A stretch of 64,000 bases of DNA, from NCBI GenBank assembly GCA_031362565.1, contig JANLSU010000048.1, forward strand, positions 8,696 to 72,695, written 5' to 3'. The translations under genes and the position numbers were made by a program. Positions 49,959 to 56,901 of this stretch are shown here, in pieces. Origin of the DNA: a bacterium (GTDB taxonomy: Bacteria; Krumholzibacteriota; Krumholzibacteriia; G020349025). The notes beneath the pieces are model-generated. The model saw only the letters and a list, made by a program, of their open reading frames with translations. It was not told the origin of the DNA and did no database searches. Every line of letters starts with the position of its first letter. The first letter of the stretch is position 1.

Positions 49959-50176
49959 GAACGATGCGGCGGTTATGCGTGCGCGGGTGCGCGTCATCGG
50001 GCGCGCTGAAGCCGGCTTCGATCAGCAACTGAACAACTAGCGAGCCGCAAACACCAGGTGCGACCAGCCCCCCTTTGAGATTCCAGCCGCCCCTTGGAGG
50101 AAGATCTCGGAATAGACGGGCGGGCGCCGTGGTTCCGAACAGGGGTTGGTCGCATTTGCTCCGAGAGCCTTTGAAA

Positions 50177-50647
50177 ATGAGGTGTGCCTTGAAATCAGCT
50201 GCCGTCGTGGTTCTTTTCGCTGCTGCGCTGGGAGTGGCTGGGTGCAAGAGTGACCCGGTACAGCCCATCATCAACAACAACGGGCCGGTCGCACCGACAA
50301 CAGTCCTACGGACTGGAACGTTGACCGCGGAGAACGGCACCCCCACCGCAGGTTCAGTTTCGGTCATCCGCGACGCAAACAACGACCAATGGGTCACGTT
50401 CGGATCAAATTTCACCTCGTCCTTCGCGACCGGAACCGTGACGGTTTATCTGGCGAAGGCTGCGTCGCGCATTGGCGATCAGCGCGTGCTCCCACCGCCT
50501 CCCGTACCGAACATCCTTGCGGCCGGTTTCGTGTCGTCGAACGGCGCTCAGGCGCTGAAGCTGCCGGCGTCGTCGACGGGCTTCGGCTACGTCGTGCTGT
50601 ACTGCGAGACTGCGGAGATCAATTTTGGCAACGCGCCCCTCAACTAG
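50177..50647 (+). CDS. DM13-like lipoprotein
   Basis: VAGC lipobox; VYLA..NGAQ..YVVLYC..INFGNAPL resembles DM13. Confidence 0.65.
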   Translation: MRCALKSAAVVVLFAAALGVAGCKSDPVQPIINNNGPVAPTTVLRTGTLTAENGTPTAGSVSVIRDANNDQWVTFGSNFTSSFATGTVTVYLAKAASRIGDQRVLPPPPVPNILAAGFVSSNGAQALKLPASSTGFGYVVLYCETAEINFGNAPLN

Positions 50648-50663
50648 GGTGCTCGGACTGTCG

Positions 50664-51440
50664 ATGAAAAGAGTCCAACGATTGCTCCCGATGTTCATCG
50701 TGGCAAAAGCGGCGATGGCAGAAGGCGCGACGCTACCGGTTGATCACCGCATGTTCGATGAGCTCCTGCATCGATATGTCACGCCGGCAGGTGTCAGCTA
50801 CCAGGACTGGTCGCAGCACCCCGAGGACATTCAGAAACTGCGCCGGTACTTGAGCGGACTCCAATCCGCAACCCCGTCGCAGATGGGAGCCGAGCCGGCG
50901 CTTGCCTACTGGATCAACCTCTACAACGCTGCGACACTGAACTTGGTGCTGGAGAAGTATCCCATCAAGAGCATCAAGGACATCGGGGCGCCATCATCGT
51001 CGCCTTGGGAAAAGACCGTGGCCACGGTCGAGGGGCGGCCACTCTCGCTCAGTCAAATCGAAAACGACGTGATCCGGCCGAAATTTCACGCCGCTCGGAG
51101 CCATTTCGCGCTGAATTGCGCCGCCCGCGGTTGCCCACCGATTCGGCCGGAAGCCTACGTCGGTGAACGCCTCCGCAGCCAGTTGGAGGATCAAACCAAG
51201 CGCTTCCTGGGTGACAGGAAGACGAACTTTGTCGACGCCACGGGGACGATTTGGCTGTCGAAGATCTTCGAGTGGTATGCAGCCGACTTCGAGGCGGCGA
51301 GTGGATCCGTCTGGGCGTTCGTAGCGCCGTATCTCGAGGGGTCCCCGGCGGGCGCAAGGAGCGCCTCGAAGTCGCCGTTGCGGTACACAGAATACGACTG
51401 GACTCTCAACGAGGCCACGAACAAGCCGCCAAAAGACTAG
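50664..51440 (+). CDS. DUF547 domain protein
   Basis: AYWINLYNA, HFALNCAARGCP, LSKIFEWY and YDWTLN motifs. Confidence 0.9.
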   Translation: MKRVQRLLPMFIVAKAAMAEGATLPVDHRMFDELLHRYVTPAGVSYQDWSQHPEDIQKLRRYLSGLQSATPSQMGAEPALAYWINLYNAATLNLVLEKYPIKSIKDIGAPSSSPWEKTVATVEGRPLSLSQIENDVIRPKFHAARSHFALNCAARGCPPIRPEAYVGERLRSQLEDQTKRFLGDRKTNFVDATGTIWLSKIFEWYAADFEAASGSVWAFVAPYLEGSPAGARSASKSPLRYTEYDWTLNEATNKPPKD

Positions 51441-51499
51441 GCGTGCGGATGCATTCGCGCGCAAGCTGCCGGAACACTTTGCAAACAAAGGCTGCATGA

Positions 51500-52348
51500 A
51501 TGAAACCGCTTGTTGCCCTGACGCTGGCTTGCAGCTTTCTCCTGCTCGGCGGCGAGGCCCACGCGGGTGGCGGCTGGGCAAGGCGGCCGCACTCCCTTTA
51601 CGTGAAACTTGCGGCCACGACCTTGACTTCCGATGCCTTTCACATCAGCAACGGCACCGTCGTCCGAACGGCGGACTTCAACACTCAGACCCTGCAGCTG
51701 TACGTTGAATACGGAGTCCTCAACCGGCTCTCGGCCGTCCTGGACGCGCCGGTCTTCAAACGCGCCGCCTACGTCACAGCAAGCTCCGCGAGTGGGATCG
51801 GTGACCTGGGGCTAACGCTGAAATACGCCATCCTGACCGGGCGATTCCCGGCGTCGTTGGGGATCGGCGCCGAATTTCCGACCGGAAACCGGCAGGCCTT
51901 TGGGGTCAACAAGAACAATCCCGAAGTGCGGATCGTCTTGCCGACCGGAGACGGTGAATTCAACACCTGGCTCCGCACTTATGTTTCGCATTCGTTTCAC
52001 CTCTGGCCGGGGTTCGCGTCGATCGATGTCGGCTACAATCTTCGGACGATGGGCTTCACGAATCAATATCAAGCCAACCTGCAGTTGGGTTACAAGGCAT
52101 CGAACGCCGTCTGGGTGTTTGGCGACCTCCGTCGGTTTGCGACCGCGGGCACACCGCGAGGCGGTGCCGTATTCTCGTCCATCGGCATCGGCGAAGGCGT
52201 CGAATACACATCCTATGGCATGGGGCTCTCCGTCGAAGTGGCGCCACATACGGATCTGACGGGCAACGTCTCCGGTGGTCTGGGGAGGGCCAAGAACATC
52301 TATTCGGGGCTCAATCTCGGATTTGGCATCGCAGTCGATCTGCCATAA
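51500..52348 (+). CDS. Outer-membrane beta-barrel protein (transporter-like)
   Basis: Signal peptide; YVEYG, GIGDLGL and EFPTG motifs; amphipathic strands. Confidence 0.65.
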   Translation: MKPLVALTLACSFLLLGGEAHAGGGWARRPHSLYVKLAATTLTSDAFHISNGTVVRTADFNTQTLQLYVEYGVLNRLSAVLDAPVFKRAAYVTASSASGIGDLGLTLKYAILTGRFPASLGIGAEFPTGNRQAFGVNKNNPEVRIVLPTGDGEFNTWLRTYVSHSFHLWPGFASIDVGYNLRTMGFTNQYQANLQLGYKASNAVWVFGDLRRFATAGTPRGGAVFSSIGIGEGVEYTSYGMGLSVEVAPHTDLTGNVSGGLGRAKNIYSGLNLGFGIAVDLP

Positions 52349-52481
52349 TCGGCAGAGCGGCGGGAATTTCTGAGGACCGCCCGGGGTTCGGGAATGTGGT
52401 GACTGGTCGGCGTATTCACGGGCCACTCGGTTCACCGGTTTGCCGGCCCGGTAGGCCAACGCTCGAAGGGGAGTGATTCCG

Positions 52482-53357
52482 ATGCACGGTCGTGTTCTTC
52501 GGTATGGTCTCGGCATCGCGCTCGTGGGATTTCTGATCTCCGGCGCCGCGAATGCCGCCCTCCTCGAGGGGCAGACCGCCCCCAACTTCACCAAGGACCA
52601 GCTCGATGCCCCTGCCCCGGCGGCGCGCTCCCTGTCCAACTACGCCGGCAAGGTCGTGGTGCTCTTCCTCCAGGGTTACAACTGACCCTTCTGCCTCACC
52701 GACGGTCCGTCGGTGCAGCAGGACATCTGGACGGCCTACAACAACTCTCACCCGGGACAGGTCCAGGTGATTGGCGTCGATCTCTACAACGGTACCGCCG
52801 CCCAGGAGCGGTCGTTCGGCAATGCCACGGGCGCGACGTATCCTCTACTCCTGCGGGGCGCCGACGGCGCGGCGGGCGTTGGAAACTTGAACACGCTGTA
52901 TATGCCGACGTCGGGCGTCACTTACGACAACTACGTTGTGATCAACAAGCACGGCATCGTGCGATACCACGCTGCGAACCGCTACGCGCACGGCAACCGG
53001 TACCACTTGAACGAGATCCGGGGGACAGTCGACTCGCTCGTGACGAACCCGACGGACGTTGGCGACGGGCCCGGCCCGCTCGGATGGTCGCTTCGTGTCA
53101 CCCCGAGCCCGTTCCATGCCACGACCTCGATCGAGTTCGTGAACGATGGACCTGCAACAACGGCTCGCCTGCGCGTCTTCAACCTTGCGGGACGCGAGAT
53201 CGCGGCTCGGTCCGCGAGCGCGGTGCCGCGGGGACCCGGCCACCTGTCGTGGGATGGGCGGGATACCGCCGGGAATCGGGTCGCCTCGGGCGTGTATCTG
53301 GTGCGAGTCGAGGTCGGAAGGGTCCGACTCACCAGTCGCGTGGTGTATCTCGAATGA
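52482..53357 (+). CDS. Secreted selenocysteine-containing redoxin (AhpC/TSA-TlpA fold, UxxC) with FlgD/T9SS-like C-terminal domain
   Basis: ORFs 52473-52685 and 52713-53357 are in the same frame. TGA 52683-52685 reads GKVVVLFLQGYN-U-PFC, at the CxxC position, and a SECIS-like hairpin follows. Confidence 0.82.
52689..52723 (+). promoter_or_regulatory. Bacterial SECIS-like element
   Basis: Upper stem CACCGACG (52697-52704) / CGTCGGTG (52708-52715) with a G-containing loop; lower stem TTCTGC/GCAGGA; immediately 3' of the UGA. Confidence 0.72.
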
Positions 53358-53926
53358 GACTGGCTGTCGCACGGATTGCAGCGGTTGTCGCGGCGGCCGT
53401 CACGATCCTTCTTGGAGTCGCAACCGGCTCCGTCGCGGGGCCGCTCGAAAAAAGACCGGCGCCCCGTTTCGAGGTCCGGAGCTTGAGTGGTGAACACCTG
53501 CGCTTGGTGGATCTCCTGGCGCACGGTCCGGTGCTCCTCGACTTTTGGGCCACCTGGTGTAAACCGTGCTTGGCGTCGCTCCCGGAACTCGAAAAGCTGC
53601 ACCAGCGCTATCGCGCGCGCGGGCTCACCGTGCTCGGGATCTCCGTCGATGGACCTCGGAACTTCGTCAAGGTGAAACCCTTCGTCCAGAAACTTCACCT
53701 CACCTTCCCCGTCGCCCTCGACGAGGACGGCTCACTGCAAGCGAAGTACTCCGTTGGCGGCTACCCGACGAGCGTGCTCATCGGGGCTGACGGTGCGGTG
53801 GATTTCCTCTTGGAGGGCTACCAGCCCGGTAACCTCGACGCGCTGGAAAAGAGGCTCCGGTCCCTGCTCGATGGGGGCGCAAGGGATTCCGCCGCGCAAG
53901 AATCGCCGCCGGATTCAACGCGATGA
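53354..53926 (+). CDS. TlpA-family thiol:disulfide oxidoreductase
   Basis: DFWATWCKPC and YPTSVLI motifs; signal/TM anchor; ATGA coupling on both sides. Confidence 0.93.
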   Translation: MRLAVARIAAVVAAAVTILLGVATGSVAGPLEKRPAPRFEVRSLSGEHLRLVDLLAHGPVLLDFWATWCKPCLASLPELEKLHQRYRARGLTVLGISVDGPRNFVKVKPFVQKLHLTFPVALDEDGSLQAKYSVGGYPTSVLIGADGAVDFLLEGYQPGNLDALEKRLRSLLDGGARDSAAQESPPDSTR

Positions 53927-55479
53927 CCCGCTGCGTTCGATGCCGAGTCGGGCGAGCGTTGCTCGCTTCCATGCTTGGAATTTTCACTCTTCTCGCCCCC
54001 AAGCCCGCACTCGCTCAGCTTTCGCTCTACAACCTGCTCGTGGGCCAGGCCGGCAACGAACCCTTCGCCACTCCGTCCGACCGGCTGTCGCTCTACGACC
54101 GGTTGCACGTCGATCTCGATCTCCCCAACGTACGCGCGGGGCTCCGTTGGGAAACCAATCGGAATAGCCTCGAACTCGATCCGTACGGCGCCGTGACGTT
54201 TCGCTACGTCGAGTTCACGGACAAGAGGGGCACGCTCCGCCTCGGAAATTTCTACACCATCCTGGGGCGGGGTATCGTGCACCGCTCGTTCGATTTGCCA
54301 GCGGTGGTTCTGGACCAGCCAGGCACCCAAGCCCGTTACGCCCCGTCGCGAGATGTCGACGGGGCGCTGGGCGAAGGCCGGCTAGGGCCTGTTGGAGCGC
54401 GCGGATTCGTGGGGCGACCGAGCGGTGGCGATGTCTCGCCGGCTTCGGGGGATGCGCGCTATGGAAACCTCGAGGCCGGATCTGAGGTCGCTGCGGATCT
54501 GTGGCGGGGGACGCGGCTCGGCGCCACCTATCTCCGGGCTTCCGGGCCGGCCGGTTCGCGCTCGGAACGAGGCTCAGGGTTCGTACAGGCGGATCTACTG
54601 CAGCTCTTCGGCACGAGTGTCGTGTCTCTGCCGTTGTACTTCGAGTATGCGCAGGTCGACGGCTCGCTCGGTGATTGGTTCCGATTCGACACCGCCGACG
54701 ACGCGCCGCACGCGCTCTATGTTTCCAGCAGTTTGCTCGTAGACCCGATTAGTATCGCACTCGAATGGAAGGACTATCGGGGCTACCGTTTCGGCACCAA
54801 CGATCCTCCCTCGCTCGTCCGCGAGCACTCCGAGCCACTCCTCAATCGGAACACGCACGTTCTGAACGCGGAGAGCGAGACGGGATACCAAGTCGAGGCT
54901 GTCGTGAACGCAACGCGCCAGCTCTCCTTCACCGGCAACCTGAGTCGGGCGGACGGCGACTTCGCGCGTCGCAGCTCACGCTTCCAGGAACGTTACTTGG
55001 AGGCCCACTGGGGCGCACTGGAGCCCGGGGGCTTGGAAGCCGGCGCTTTCTGGAGCAGCGGCCGGGACCAGTTCGTGTTCATCCAGCGCCGCCGGATCAC
55101 CGGCGCGGGCGTCGTCGTGCCGTTGCCCGCCAAAGTACAACTGACGGCGGAACTGGAGCGCCAGGCGGCGACTCGGACCCCCGAGGTGTCCTTTGTCGAT
55201 CACTACGGTTCGCTCCAGTTGGCCCGCGGCAACGCAAGTTTGGCCGTGGTGTACGAGCGCTCCACCGATCCAGAGCAGGAGGCCCCGGACGACGCCGCAA
55301 GCGCCGAAGTGAACCCGCGCCATTTTGTCGCGATGGTGGGTGGCGTGCGTCTCTCCGACCACCACAACATGACGCTGTTCGTCGGCGAGCGCCGCGGGGG
55401 ACGCGCCTGCACGGCGGGCACTTGCTACGAGGTCCGTTCGTTCCGCGGCGCGGAACTCCGCCTCGTCTCCCGATTCTAG
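53923..55479 (+). CDS. DUF6029-like outer-membrane beta-barrel with C-terminal Cys pair
   Basis: Signal peptide; GNFYTILGRG and EWKDY motifs; C-terminus GERRGGRACTAGTCYEVRSFRG...SRF. Confidence 0.72.
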   Translation: MTRCVRCRVGRALLASMLGIFTLLAPKPALAQLSLYNLLVGQAGNEPFATPSDRLSLYDRLHVDLDLPNVRAGLRWETNRNSLELDPYGAVTFRYVEFTDKRGTLRLGNFYTILGRGIVHRSFDLPAVVLDQPGTQARYAPSRDVDGALGEGRLGPVGARGFVGRPSGGDVSPASGDARYGNLEAGSEVAADLWRGTRLGATYLRASGPAGSRSERGSGFVQADLLQLFGTSVVSLPLYFEYAQVDGSLGDWFRFDTADDAPHALYVSSSLLVDPISIALEWKDYRGYRFGTNDPPSLVREHSEPLLNRNTHVLNAESETGYQVEAVVNATRQLSFTGNLSRADGDFARRSSRFQERYLEAHWGALEPGGLEAGAFWSSGRDQFVFIQRRRITGAGVVVPLPAKVQLTAELERQAATRTPEVSFVDHYGSLQLARGNASLAVVYERSTDPEQEAPDDAASAEVNPRHFVAMVGGVRLSDHHNMTLFVGERRGGRACTAGTCYEVRSFRGAELRLVSRF

Positions 55480-56127: not shown

Positions 56128-56901
56128 TCACATGCCCATGATGTTGTAGCCGCAATCCACGTGCAGCGTCTCGCCGGTGATGCCGGCACTGTGATCGGAG
56201 AGCAAGAACAGCCCCGTGTGCGCCACATCGTCCATGGTGATGTTGCGCTGCAACGGTGATTTCTCGCGCGCGTGGGTCAGCATCGAATTGAAATCGCCGA
56301 CGCCTTTGGCCGACAGCGTCTTGATCGGGCCCGCCGACAGCGCGTTGACGCGAATGTTCTGCGGCCCGAGATCGTTGGCCAGGTACCGCACGCTCGCCTC
56401 CAGGGCGGCCTTGGTGACGCCCATGATGTTGTAGTGCGGAATCACCTTTTCGGCGCCGAAATAGGTCAGAGTGATCATGGCGCCGCCGCCGCGCGCCGCC
56501 ATGAGTGGTGCTGCGCCGCGTGCCATCGCCGTGAACGAATAGGCCCCGATGTCGAGCGCTTTGTGAAAGCCGCTACGCGACACGGTGTAATACGGCCCCA
56601 CCAAGTCCTCTTTCTCGGCGTACGCCACGGCATGCACGAGCAAATCGATGCCGCCCATTTCCTTGCCGATCACCTCGAAAAGGCGGTCGATGGCCGCGTC
56701 ATCGGCGACGTCACAAGGCAGGACGAGCGGACTGTTCAGGGTCTCGGCCAGGCGCCGGACGCGCTCCTCGATTGCTCCGCCCTGATAGGTCACCGCCAGC
56801 GTCGCGCCCTCGGCGACGAGTTGCTGCGCAATCCCGTATGCCAGGCTGCGGTCGTTCGCGAGCCCCAAAACGAGCGCCTTTTTGCCCGCCACTGAACCCA
56901 T
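56128..56901 (-). CDS. fabI: Enoyl-ACP reductase
   Basis: GLANDRSLAYGIA, YNIMGVTKAALE and SAGPIKTL motifs. Confidence 0.95.
   Translation of the reverse strand: MGSVAGKKALVLGLANDRSLAYGIAQQLVAEGATLAVTYQGGAIEERVRRLAETLNSPLVLPCDVADDAAIDRLFEVIGKEMGGIDLLVHAVAYAEKEDLVGPYYTVSRSGFHKALDIGAYSFTAMARGAAPLMAARGGGAMITLTYFGAEKVIPHYNIMGVTKAALEASVRYLANDLGPQNIRVNALSAGPIKTLSAKGVGDFNSMLTHAREKSPLQRNITMDDVAHTGLFLLSDHSAGITGETLHVDCGYNIMGM

Follow-up and report, generated by a model that had tools for sequence, protein, structure and literature searches.

The locus analysed here bears on the route by which reducing power might be supplied for thiol chemistry outside the Gram-negative cell. On the forward strand of the window (the whole stretch of 64,000 nucleotides that was analysed), three consecutive genes can be read from the sequence: gene 1 (52482-53357; 291 aa, from an ATG at 52482 to a TGA at 53355-53357, with a GGGGAG 8-13 nucleotides 5' of the ATG), gene 2 (53354-53926; 190 aa, from an ATG at 53354 to a TGA at 53924-53926) and gene 3 (53923-55479; 518 aa, from an ATG at 53923 to a TAG at 55477-55479). 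The genes join through ATGA overlaps, at 53354-53357 and at 53923-53926, and each gene carries one redox motif, UPFC in gene 1, WCKPC in gene 2 and CTAGTC in gene 3, an arrangement which an earlier note on this DNA had described and which is confirmed. The public call for gene 3 (P0005, 502 aa) begins at M17 rather than at the overlap; the latter gives the better signal peptide and is taken as the candidate start. A scan for promoters and terminators returned no signal over the shuffle expectation. Three upstream genes, encoding a DM13-like protein (50075-50647), a DUF547 protein (50625-51440) and a putative barrel of 282 aa (51500-52348), were considered as part of the unit and excluded, because they are matched in only 0, 1 and 0 of 56 loci, respectively.

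Judged from these gene neighbourhoods, the trio itself is a conserved unit that recurs across several bacterial phyla. The survey of DUF6029 homologues which the earlier note had suggested as a check places a TlpA less than 900 nucleotides from the barrel in 55 of the 56 loci (47 on the same strand, 8 divergent), the single exception having just 3 nucleotides of upstream DNA, and a redoxin core within 2.5 kb of the barrel in 51. No redoxin lies nearby in five loci, among them L050 with 6 kb on each flank, and both L049 and L050 keep the TlpA-barrel pair without one. TlpA adjoins the barrel in 25/29 Bacteroidota loci, where the third gene encodes the same redoxin (in Sec or Cys form), a CTD protein, or a PEGA+Omp28/DUF1223 thioredoxin-like protein; the association of TlpA, DUF6029 and an Omp28-like thioredoxin-fold protein that the earlier note had named for this phylum is seen here. 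A second complete trio is present in the same genome, tandem redoxins (2-3 copies) occur in six loci, and one in-frame TlpA-barrel fusion was found (P0013, 666 aa); no longer fused barrels were found in the 908-2590 aa range, which counts as weak evidence. Part of the synteny in Eisenbacteria is simple shared descent, since fabI is also kept downstream of the trio in 17 loci. Across phyla, the genes for TlpA and the barrel are almost always paired, with a sorted thioredoxin-fold protein as their usual companion. The features of the locus go beyond chance, given that the UGA aligns with Cys or UGA codons in 59/59 homologue copies, that the cysteine pair of the barrel is present in 120/120 homologues and that the gene order recurs. 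A pair that varied, or genes that failed to co-occur, had been named beforehand as grounds against a relay; the pair is invariant and the trio recurs. Taken as a whole, the sequences and models point to a conserved envelope thiol/selenol redox module, by which thiol chemistry may be extended to the cell surface. A literature search found no study of a selenoredoxin-TlpA-barrel module and, on DUF6029, only a polysaccharide guess in the accessible text of one paper (PMC9603273).

Inspection of the first gene shows an in-frame UGA at 52683-52685, and translation with TGA as U gives GYN-U-PFC (U68, C71). The codon aligned to U68 is TGA in 42 and TGC or TGT in 17 of the 59 homologue copies, all of which keep the second Cys of the UxxC site; adding the Bacteroidota loci, the sequence from the window itself and the C75 paralogue to these homologues gives 47 distinct sequences with Sec versus 21 with Cys. 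A SECIS-like hairpin (52689-52723) starts 6 nucleotides 3' of the UGA, with an outer stem at 52689-52694/52718-52723, an inner stem CACCGACG/CGUCGGUG and an apical loop GUC (GGUCC core), and has an MFE of -21.3 kcal/mol (z -1.8). It is kept in most Sec homologues and absent from most Cys homologues (mean local MFE -12.9 in the 47 Sec forms versus -7.9 in the 21 Cys forms), and is held by synonymous codon choice: the DGPS codons are GAC GGT CCG TC[G/C] in 23/23 Sec forms encoding DGPS versus 1/4 Cys forms. A search of 52400-53000 against Rfam, in which we know of no general bacterial SECIS model, gave no match, and none of the NCBIfam selenoprotein models matched gene 1. The genome encodes selB (350 bits), selA (501 bits) and selD (384 bits), all above cut-off, along with a tRNA-SeC on C62. 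On account of the Sec/Cys codon alternation, the downstream hairpin and this complete machinery, gene 1 is, at the level of sequence, a genuine selenoprotein gene, as had been proposed from the sequence alone. Public gene calls stop at the UGA: among the matches listed, 55 of 120 gene 1 homologues are cut there and stand as 205-235 aa fragments. The gene 1-type redoxins would constitute an unannotated selenoprotein subfamily, which is defined here.

In domain architectural terms, gene 1 opens with a signal peptide (...AANA/AL), which is followed by a thioredoxin fold of the ResA/TlpA kind (residues ~30-187), a linker and an Ig-like, putatively type IX secretion (T9SS)-type sorting domain (~203-291). 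Its Pfam matches to AhpC-TSA (35.9 bits), Redoxin (34.2) and FlgD_ig (PF13860, 39.1) are all above their cut-offs, and the closest folds of its AF2 model (pLDDT 90.3) are 2ls5, the DipZ C-terminal domains and ResA, including predicted likeness to oxidoreductases of the ResA/DsbE type. CxxC is found in 65/65 full-length homologues. A catalytic peroxiredoxin of the AhpC/TSA type was considered and rejected, as the L-Q-G-Y-N-U-P-F-C segment lacks P-x-x-x-T/S-x-x-C and has no Thr/Ser at -3. The nearest described selenoproteins are the Prx-like thiol:disulfide oxidoreductases (PF00578, UxxC) tabulated in a 2026 review (PMC13188914), with which gene 1 shares, to the extent of the accessible text, the PF00578 match above cut-off, the UxxC site and the Sec/Cys alternation; that text never mentions 'secreted' or 'periplasm'. 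The gene 1 subfamily is set apart from them by its T9SS CTD or short C-terminal tag and by the TlpA-barrel module.

With respect to sorting, the C-terminal profile of gene 1 matches the CTDs of PorU 6za2 (9.4e-5) and 5m11 (1.7e-5), and the CTD models themselves score below their cut-offs (TIGR04183 22.1 against 23; PF18962 13.5 against 27). A search of the genome that covered SprA, PorU and the CTD recovered SprA (448.9 bits summed), three PorU above cut-off and 38 CTD-only matches, gene 1 among them. In most of the 70 homologue rows listed for gene 1, the C-terminus is formed by a T9SS-CTD-like strand. L055, L060, L062 and the C75 paralogue of the same genome, which lacks a T9SS CTD, carry a short W-x-x-(I/V)-K tag at this end; other endings are seen in L046, both L057 copies and L081, and 3/70 rows run off the locus. 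On the strength of the T9SS-type sorting domain, the surface location that the earlier note had assigned to gene 1 is plausible. A precedent by description is HBP35 of Porphyromonas gingivalis, which likewise joins a thioredoxin motif to a T9SS C-terminal domain, is glycosylated on the outer membrane and loses its insulin-reduction activity upon mutation of its CxxC (PMC2907840). However, HBP35 uses Cys and binds haem, whereas gene 1 uses Sec. Surface thioredoxins hence exist, and the accessible part of the HBP35 account neither states their reductant nor describes a TlpA-barrel link or surface electron source (PMC2907840).

Gene 2, with its WATWCKPC site, is a TlpA/ResA-like periplasmic thiol-disulfide oxidoreductase, with a hydrophobic N-terminus which, read by eye, forms a signal or anchor sequence. 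It matches AhpC-TSA (84.6 bits), Redoxin (68.7) and Thioredoxin_8 (53.7) in Pfam and, in the PDB, ResA 4nmu (1.1e-23) and TlpA 1jfu (6.8e-9). It misses the curated NCBIfam cut-offs of both the ResA subfamily (100 bits, <170) and the TlpA equivalog (45.6, <230); by these scores it is a family-level relative of TlpA/ResA, not an equivalog.

Gene 3, by profile and predicted structure, is an outer-membrane barrel and a distant DUF6029 member. PF19494 matches it at 36.1 bits (cut-off 27) over the N-terminal part only (profile positions 52-127), and precomputed annotation gives its homologues the same domain. It has a signal peptide (...PALA/QLS), 24 predicted strands, a C-terminal beta-signal (...LRLVSRF) and two long conserved loops (111-144 and 287-318), which may fill the barrel lumen. 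The closest folds to its AF2 model (pLDDT 89.6, pTM 0.81) are the 24-stranded FimD/PapC usher barrels (Foldseek TM ~0.5; VIA Z 18.7 and 16.7), at an identity of 10-14% that makes this a likeness of fold and size only. A role as a chaperone-usher usher was rejected: there is no Pfam usher match, the 518 residues are all taken by the barrel with no room for plug, N-terminal or C-terminal domains, and the neighbours are redox genes.

The cysteine pair of the barrel, C496-T-A-G-T-C501 (codons 55408-55425, within RACTAGTC), lies 17-22 residues ahead of the C-terminal ...LRLVSRF. In a cross-phylum alignment that includes Bacteroidota PF19494 members, C496, G499 and C501 are present in 50/50 sequences together with L307, N308 and R309, from which a DUF6029 motif, G-x-R-x-x-G-x-x-C-x-x-G-x-C plus an L-N-R loop, can be stated; this is a definition made here and not a curated one. 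The C-x4-C tail is found in 30/33 of the loci L070-L102, the remaining three being without a complete barrel ORF, and 92/120 mature barrels have no Cys beyond the pair, whose two members are the sole conserved cysteines of the barrel. Further residues conserved in 50/50 sequences are E241, E281, K283, Y285 and E319, which with N308 and R309 map to strands 11, 13 and 14 and to the loop 287-318. In the AF2 model, barrel strands 23 and 24 flank a short hairpin (strands 493-497 and 500-504) that carries the pair, and strand parity and loop lengths, the only guides used, would place this hairpin on the outer (extracellular) side. The pair may be viewed as a cross-strand C-x-x-G-x-C staple at the hairpin tip, which could be purely structural. 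Invariant paired cysteines are also known from SprF/PorG, outer-membrane barrels of T9SS bacteria in which they are functional. In the part of that account available, however, the motif is a CxC in a periplasmic C-terminal tail that forms an intermolecular bond to the lipoprotein track GldK/PorK (PMC12635249), as opposed to the C-x-x-G-x-C of gene 3, whose hairpin precedes the final strand and is modelled as facing outward.

These observations are best accommodated, with a probability of roughly 0.4, by a TlpA-fed module in which a surface redoxin is maintained in its reduced state by way of the barrel. Electrons would reach the periplasm via the single DsbD/CcdA-type protein of the genome, which has one DsbD_TM gene, and would then reduce the TlpA-like protein, which would act where the barrel opens to the periplasm. 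The barrel would serve as a conduit, and probably also as a docking site, for keeping the surface-displayed selenoredoxin reduced, with exchange occurring directly inside the wide lumen or via the hairpin cysteines. The reduced U/C site would then attack an extracellular or surface disulfide-type substrate, and Sec would make this outermost step fast and resistant to over-oxidation. The first steps resemble the DsbD/CcdA pathways to TlpA, ResA and CcmG/DsbE: gene 2 shares their fold and W-C-x-P-C site, gene 1 shares their fold, and the one DsbD_TM gene could feed both. The known reducing pathways terminate within the periplasm, on clients such as cytochrome c, Sco and CoxB, and we know of no DsbD/CcdA-type pathway paired with an outer-membrane barrel or serving a secreted client.

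The relay which the earlier note had drawn survives this reading in part. The module is real and conserved; however, direct reduction of the barrel pair by periplasmic TlpA is doubtful, since strand counting puts the pair on the outer side, on a hairpin modelled away from the periplasm, and TlpA would have access to it only through the lumen. The proposed analogy to DsbD can be upheld in functional terms only, the pair being modelled on a hairpin that extends past the outer end of strands 23 and 24 and not at a site within the membrane known to be accessible from either face. A complex prediction for the Cys-form barrel P0099 and the redoxin P0130 of locus L020, with an alignment for each, gave 0.34, 0.00 and 0.00, values which weigh neither way on binding.

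The main alternative, possible albeit on the unlikely side, is that the barrel is an anchor, a dedicated translocon or a plain channel with a structural Cys staple. TlpA would then serve only to reduce the redoxin, and perhaps the barrel cysteines, on the periplasmic side ahead of export or assembly; reducing power would not cross the outer membrane, and the redoxin would act once or be recycled by an external reductant. The modelled geometry of C496/C501, a cross-strand disulfide at a two-residue turn with an invariant G499, fits this. Further, the barrel compares in size with ushers, through which Ig-fold subunits pass, and the C-terminal domain of gene 1 is itself Ig-like; in T9SS, CTD proteins bind outer-membrane barrels such as PorV and PorQ. 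Additionally, the invariant cysteines of the SprF and PorG barrels serve attachment, not catalysis, in the available part of their account (PMC12635249). However, the near-obligate TlpA partner is left unexplained, because a lone pair of consecutive cysteines, as in most of the barrels, needs no reductase or isomerase to form. The survival of the TlpA-barrel pair in L049 and L050, away from any redoxin, also speaks against it, and a costly selenoenzyme is unlikely to be used only once.

An improbable alternative reverses the direction of traffic: cargo would be relayed inward, or taken up through a channel under redox control. The surface redoxin would bind a substrate bearing a disulfide, sulfane sulfur, selenium or a metal in the form of a mixed (selenyl)sulfide, the barrel pair would accept or gate this substrate, and TlpA would set it free in the periplasm. 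This alternative would draw on the same linkage of TlpA, barrel and redoxin; the pair, if on the outer side as modelled, would be within reach of the surface redoxin, the invariant charged residues of strands 11, 13 and 14 and the loop 287-318 suggest a specific lumenal site, and the tandem redoxins of six loci suggest varied clients or substrates. However, no conserved transporter, sulfur or selenium metabolism genes are found in the trio flanks examined, and the idea is purely inferential.

More improbable still is a system confined to the periplasm, in which the Ig-like domain would be no secretion signal, gene 1 would act in antioxidant defence or repair with TlpA as its recycling partner, and the barrel would be a co-inherited porin. 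The AhpC-TSA/Redoxin matches of gene 1, the sub-threshold TIGR04183 and PF18962 scores and the missing CTD of the C75 paralogue are consistent with it. Against this, the UxxC/CxxC site is of the ResA type without the peroxiredoxin Thr/Ser, most of the homologue C-termini listed have a sorting-type end, the genome contains SprA, three PorU and many proteins with this CTD, and both the barrel Cys pair and the pairing with TlpA become coincidences.

Finally, that DUF6029 is a Wzi-like polysaccharide-export porin with the redox genes as unrelated neighbours, a role suggested in passing in the accessible part of PMC9603273, can be set aside as highly improbable: some Wzi-barrel homologues show HHpred similarity to DUF6029 (PMC9603273), Wzi 2ynk matches gene 3 at VIA Z 13.8 over 284 residues and L049 and L050 have glycosyltransferase genes downstream, but Wzi ranks below the ushers and among generic barrel matches, the window has no OPX/Wza or polysaccharide genes next to the trio, and the near-obligate TlpA neighbour and invariant Cys pair would go unexplained.

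Returning to the TlpA-fed module, a fuller version of it, advanced only tentatively and rather unlikely in all its parts, would see the trio as an outer-membrane thiol/selenol conduit, a non-haem counterpart of MtrCAB and, in the outer membrane, an equivalent of DsbD. DsbD would feed a soluble TlpA that docks at the barrel, and a strained cross-strand Cys pair or direct exchange within the 24-strand lumen would reduce T9SS-displayed seleno- and thio-redoxins, giving FCB (Fibrobacterota-Chlorobiota-Bacteroidota) bacteria a renewable surface reductase. With MtrCAB it would share the idea that electrons are carried over the outer membrane by a redox protein encased in a large barrel, and MtrB 6r2q matches gene 3 at VIA Z 12.3 over 368 residues, a generic large-barrel likeness; unlike MtrCAB, the trio has no haems or cytochromes, and thiol-disulfide exchange needs contact, not tunnelling. 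DUF6029 gains a first context-based functional lead from these associations, and the near-obligate TlpA-barrel pairing with sorted thioredoxin-fold partners offers a concrete, testable candidate in several phyla, one of which includes a relative that can be cultured, locus L060 being labelled Gemmatimonas phototrophica.

Three consecutive genes on the forward strand of the window, at 52482-53357, 53354-53926 and 53923-55479, are joined by ATGA overlaps at both junctions. The first (gene 1), a selenoredoxin, has an in-frame TGA at 52683-52685 and translates as GYN-U-PFC across it; the second (gene 2) encodes a TlpA/ResA-like protein with WATWCKPC; and the third (gene 3) encodes an outer-membrane barrel with RACTAGTC, whose cysteines stand 17-22 residues before the C-terminal end. 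These coordinates and translations confirm the original observation of three overlapping genes, each with a redox pair. The window has a GC content of 66% and belongs to contig C11 of a 5.4 Mb genome, and homologue searches return, as the closest relatives of its proteins, sequences labeled Candidatus Eisenbacteria.

The three exported proteins, with one redox pair apiece, are inherited together, the TlpA-like protein and the barrel forming the invariant core. The survey covered 56 loci, from Eisenbacteria, Latescibacterota, Gemmatimonadota, Krumholzibacteriia and other groups. In 55 of them a TlpA homologue sits no more than 900 nt from the barrel (47 on the same strand and 8 divergent), the sole miss having only 3 nt of DNA upstream, and in 51 a gene 1 homologue is found within 2.5 kb of the barrel. 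At six loci (L018, L019, L023, L033, L035 and L042) two to three tandem redoxin copies precede a single TlpA and a single barrel, with Sec and Cys forms mixed at L023. The barrel occurs in 58 of 201 sampled genomes of the window's phylum, and its DUF6029 family (PF19494) in 39 of 167 sampled Bacteroidota genomes. TlpA is the neighbor of the barrel at 25 of 29 Bacteroidota loci, and upstream DNA is lacking at two of the four exceptions. With four loci out of three further genomes included (L070-L102), the C-x4-C tail is seen in 30 of 33, the other three being without a complete barrel ORF. The third gene in Bacteroidota encodes the same redoxin (Sec or Cys), a protein bearing a type IX secretion (T9SS) C-terminal domain (CTD), or a thioredoxin-like protein of the PEGA+Omp28/DUF1223 type. 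This agrees with the statement of the earlier note that TlpA, DUF6029-type barrels and Omp28-like proteins co-occur in Bacteroidota. Two loci, L049 and L050, have a TlpA-barrel pair and no redoxin within reach (6 kb on each side at L050); downstream of the barrel in both are a glycosyltransferase gene and a radical-SAM gene.

Not all of this proximity carries equal weight. An enoyl-ACP reductase gene (fabI-like; 56128-56901, reverse strand) downstream of the trio keeps its position in 17 related loci, and therefore part of the synteny within Eisenbacteria is plain shared descent; the cross-phylum loci of altered orientation weigh more as evidence of linkage. Just upstream and co-oriented (50075-52348, forward strand) are three genes: one resembling DM13 (a weak match of 20.9 bits), one of the DUF547 family, and one for a 282-aa signal-peptide protein without family, a putative small barrel. 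None of them was accepted as a member of the unit, since they are matched in 0, 1 and 0 of the 56 loci, respectively. Additionally, the same genome has a paralogous trio outside the window (contig C75, ~34370-31726, reverse strand), comprising a selenoredoxin with WNUGEC, a TlpA-like gene and a CTAGTC barrel. A public metagenome protein of 666 aa (P0013) is an in-frame TlpA-barrel fusion in which the mature barrel follows without a signal peptide of its own, albeit as a single sequence on one contig that might be an assembly or frameshift artefact.

Gene 1 matches the Pfam families AhpC-TSA and Redoxin over residues 30-163 and FlgD_ig over 214-277, and its AlphaFold2 model (pLDDT 90.3) shows a thioredoxin fold followed by a C-terminal beta-sandwich. 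The solved structures closest to this model are a putative disulfide isomerase from Bacteroides (2ls5), the DipZ C-terminal domains, ResA and DsbE. Since there is no Thr/Ser at position -3 of the active site, gene 1 encodes a CxxC-type oxidoreductase, and a peroxiredoxin identity was rejected on the same ground. Its C-terminal domain scores 22.1 against TIGR04183, just short of the cut-off of 23, and a profile built for the family finds the C-terminal domains of two solved structures, PorU (6za2) and 5m11, an entry titled 'Immunoreactive 84kD antigen PG93' that we take to be PorZ. T9SS proteins of the genome include SprA (448.9 bits) and three PorU sortases above cut-off, and there are 38 further CTD-only matches, gene 1 among them. 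A T9SS-type last strand ends most of 70 homologue sequences, including those from Bacteroidota; a short W-x-x-(I/V)-K tag ends those of L055, L060 and L062, other endings are seen in L046, both L057 copies and L081, and three sequences run off their loci. The selenoredoxin of the paralogous trio is without a T9SS domain and has the final residues ...TPTWSTVKGLYR; its C-terminus, reading ...TWSTVKGLYR, is similar to that of L055, with a variant in L060 and L062. Taken together, the sorting-type domain, the T9SS in the genome and the homologue C-termini make a destination beyond the periplasm likely for gene 1.

Gene 2, a TlpA/ResA-like thioredoxin-fold reductase, matches AhpC-TSA at 84.6 bits, and its closest solved structure is ResA (4nmu, 1.1e-23), with a further match to 2m72 (3.6e-13). 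It scores below the curated cut-offs for both ResA and TlpA. The N-termini of gene 2 and of two orthologues (from L020 and P0013) resemble, by eye, cleavable signal peptides, which suggests that it is soluble in the periplasm. A thioredoxin-domain protein of P. gingivalis, PG2175, is listed as periplasmic in PMC13744359.

Gene 3 matches PF19494 at 36.1 bits over its N-terminal part only, and its homologues bear the same domain, which makes it a distant member of DUF6029. Its AlphaFold2 model (pLDDT 89.6, pTM 0.81) has 24 long strands, and its top structural matches are the 24-strand usher barrels FimD and PapC (Foldseek TM ~0.5; VIA Z 18.7 and 16.7), with Wzi (Z 13.8) and MtrB (Z 12.3) among the generic barrel matches. 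All 120 homologues retain the cysteines C496 and C501, and 92 of them have no other cysteine in the mature protein. A cross-phylum alignment of 50 sequences, extending to Bacteroidota at ~23-30% identity, has both cysteines and G499 in all 50. Other universally conserved positions fall in loops 111-144 and 287-318 and at residues that face the lumen on strands 11, 13 and 14. In the model the two cysteines oppose each other on a short hairpin (493-497/500-504, with the turn at A498-G499) between strands 23 and 24. Both termini of outer-membrane barrels are periplasmic; with 24 strands, this would put the hairpin on the extracellular side, in agreement with where the long loops and short turns fall, strand counting and loop lengths defining its side and not a bend into the lumen.

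The trio is a genuine, widely distributed and hitherto unstudied module. The genome encodes a single DsbD-type protein, which would feed the TlpA-like protein; this in turn would serve either the barrel itself or, by way of the barrel, a client, and the sorted redoxin would be that client. Our best reading is a TlpA-fed module in which a surface redoxin is kept reduced via the barrel, with a probability of about 0.4. The earlier note had gone further, passing electrons from TlpA through the barrel cysteines to a surface selenoprotein. This interpretation is supported in part: the trio itself is real and conserved, but the TlpA-to-barrel step is doubtful because the model puts the pair outside; TlpA access would then be possible only through the lumen of the usher-sized barrel, and a full relay across the outer membrane, still hypothetical, is less likely than our broader reading. 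The main rival makes the barrel an anchor or channel and its cysteine pair a structural staple. However, a lone consecutive pair would require no dedicated reductase, and the TlpA partner is near-obligate even without a redoxin nearby (L049, L050). Three further readings are less likely: a relay that carries cargo inward, a system confined to the periplasm, and the polysaccharide porin suggested in PMC9603273.

The reductase side of this module resembles the periplasmic DsbD-TlpA/ResA pathways, which are already known. Its other parts likewise have precedents: UxxC 'Prx-like thiol:disulfide oxidoreductases' are a known selenoprotein class (PMC13188914), HBP35 is a T9SS surface thioredoxin (PMC2907840), and cysteines are functional in the T9SS-linked barrels SprF and PorG (PMC12635249). 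Literature searches found no published account of the combination itself, in which the reductase is linked both to an outer-membrane barrel carrying an invariant cysteine pair and to a sorted thioredoxin-fold partner.

The 56 loci, all from other genomes, contain 59 homologue copies of gene 1. Opposite U68, 42 of these copies have TGA and 17 have TGC/TGT, and the second active-site cysteine is present in all 59; with Bacteroidota loci, the window and the in-genome paralogue included, there are 47 distinct Sec and 21 Cys sequences. A SECIS-like hairpin begins 6 nt past the gene 1 UGA (MFE -21.3 kcal/mol, z -1.8), and its core, GAC GGU CCG UCG, with GGUCC at the apex, is found again in Sec forms and is absent from most Cys forms. 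Mean local folding energy is -12.9 kcal/mol in Sec versus -7.9 in Cys forms (Mann-Whitney p 1.9e-6, overstated as the sequences are related). Among homologues encoding D-G-P-S there, GAC GGT CCG TC[G/C] is used in 23/23 Sec versus 1/4 Cys forms. A more distant clade has another stem, UCGCGG/CCGCGA, at equal distance from the UGA. One Cys-form redoxin (TGT; L014:376-438) retains the full hairpin and looks like a recent Sec-to-Cys change. The genome encodes selB, selA, selD and tRNA-SeC; this machinery, the hairpin and the Sec/Cys alternation argue strongly that gene 1 is a real selenoprotein. The selD gene (contig C6, 945-1859; locus L066) contains one in-frame TGA, so the selenophosphate synthetase that it encodes is probably a selenoprotein too.

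In public protein sets the gene 1 family appears as full-length Cys forms, named redoxin or peroxiredoxin, or as fragments. Among 120 homologues listed, the 65 that reach 265 aa or more all have CxxC, and the other 55 are fragments of 205-235 aa beginning 3' of the UGA, with hypothetical or FlgD as the name of the few that have one. Mis-calling of the selenoprotein forms is systematic.
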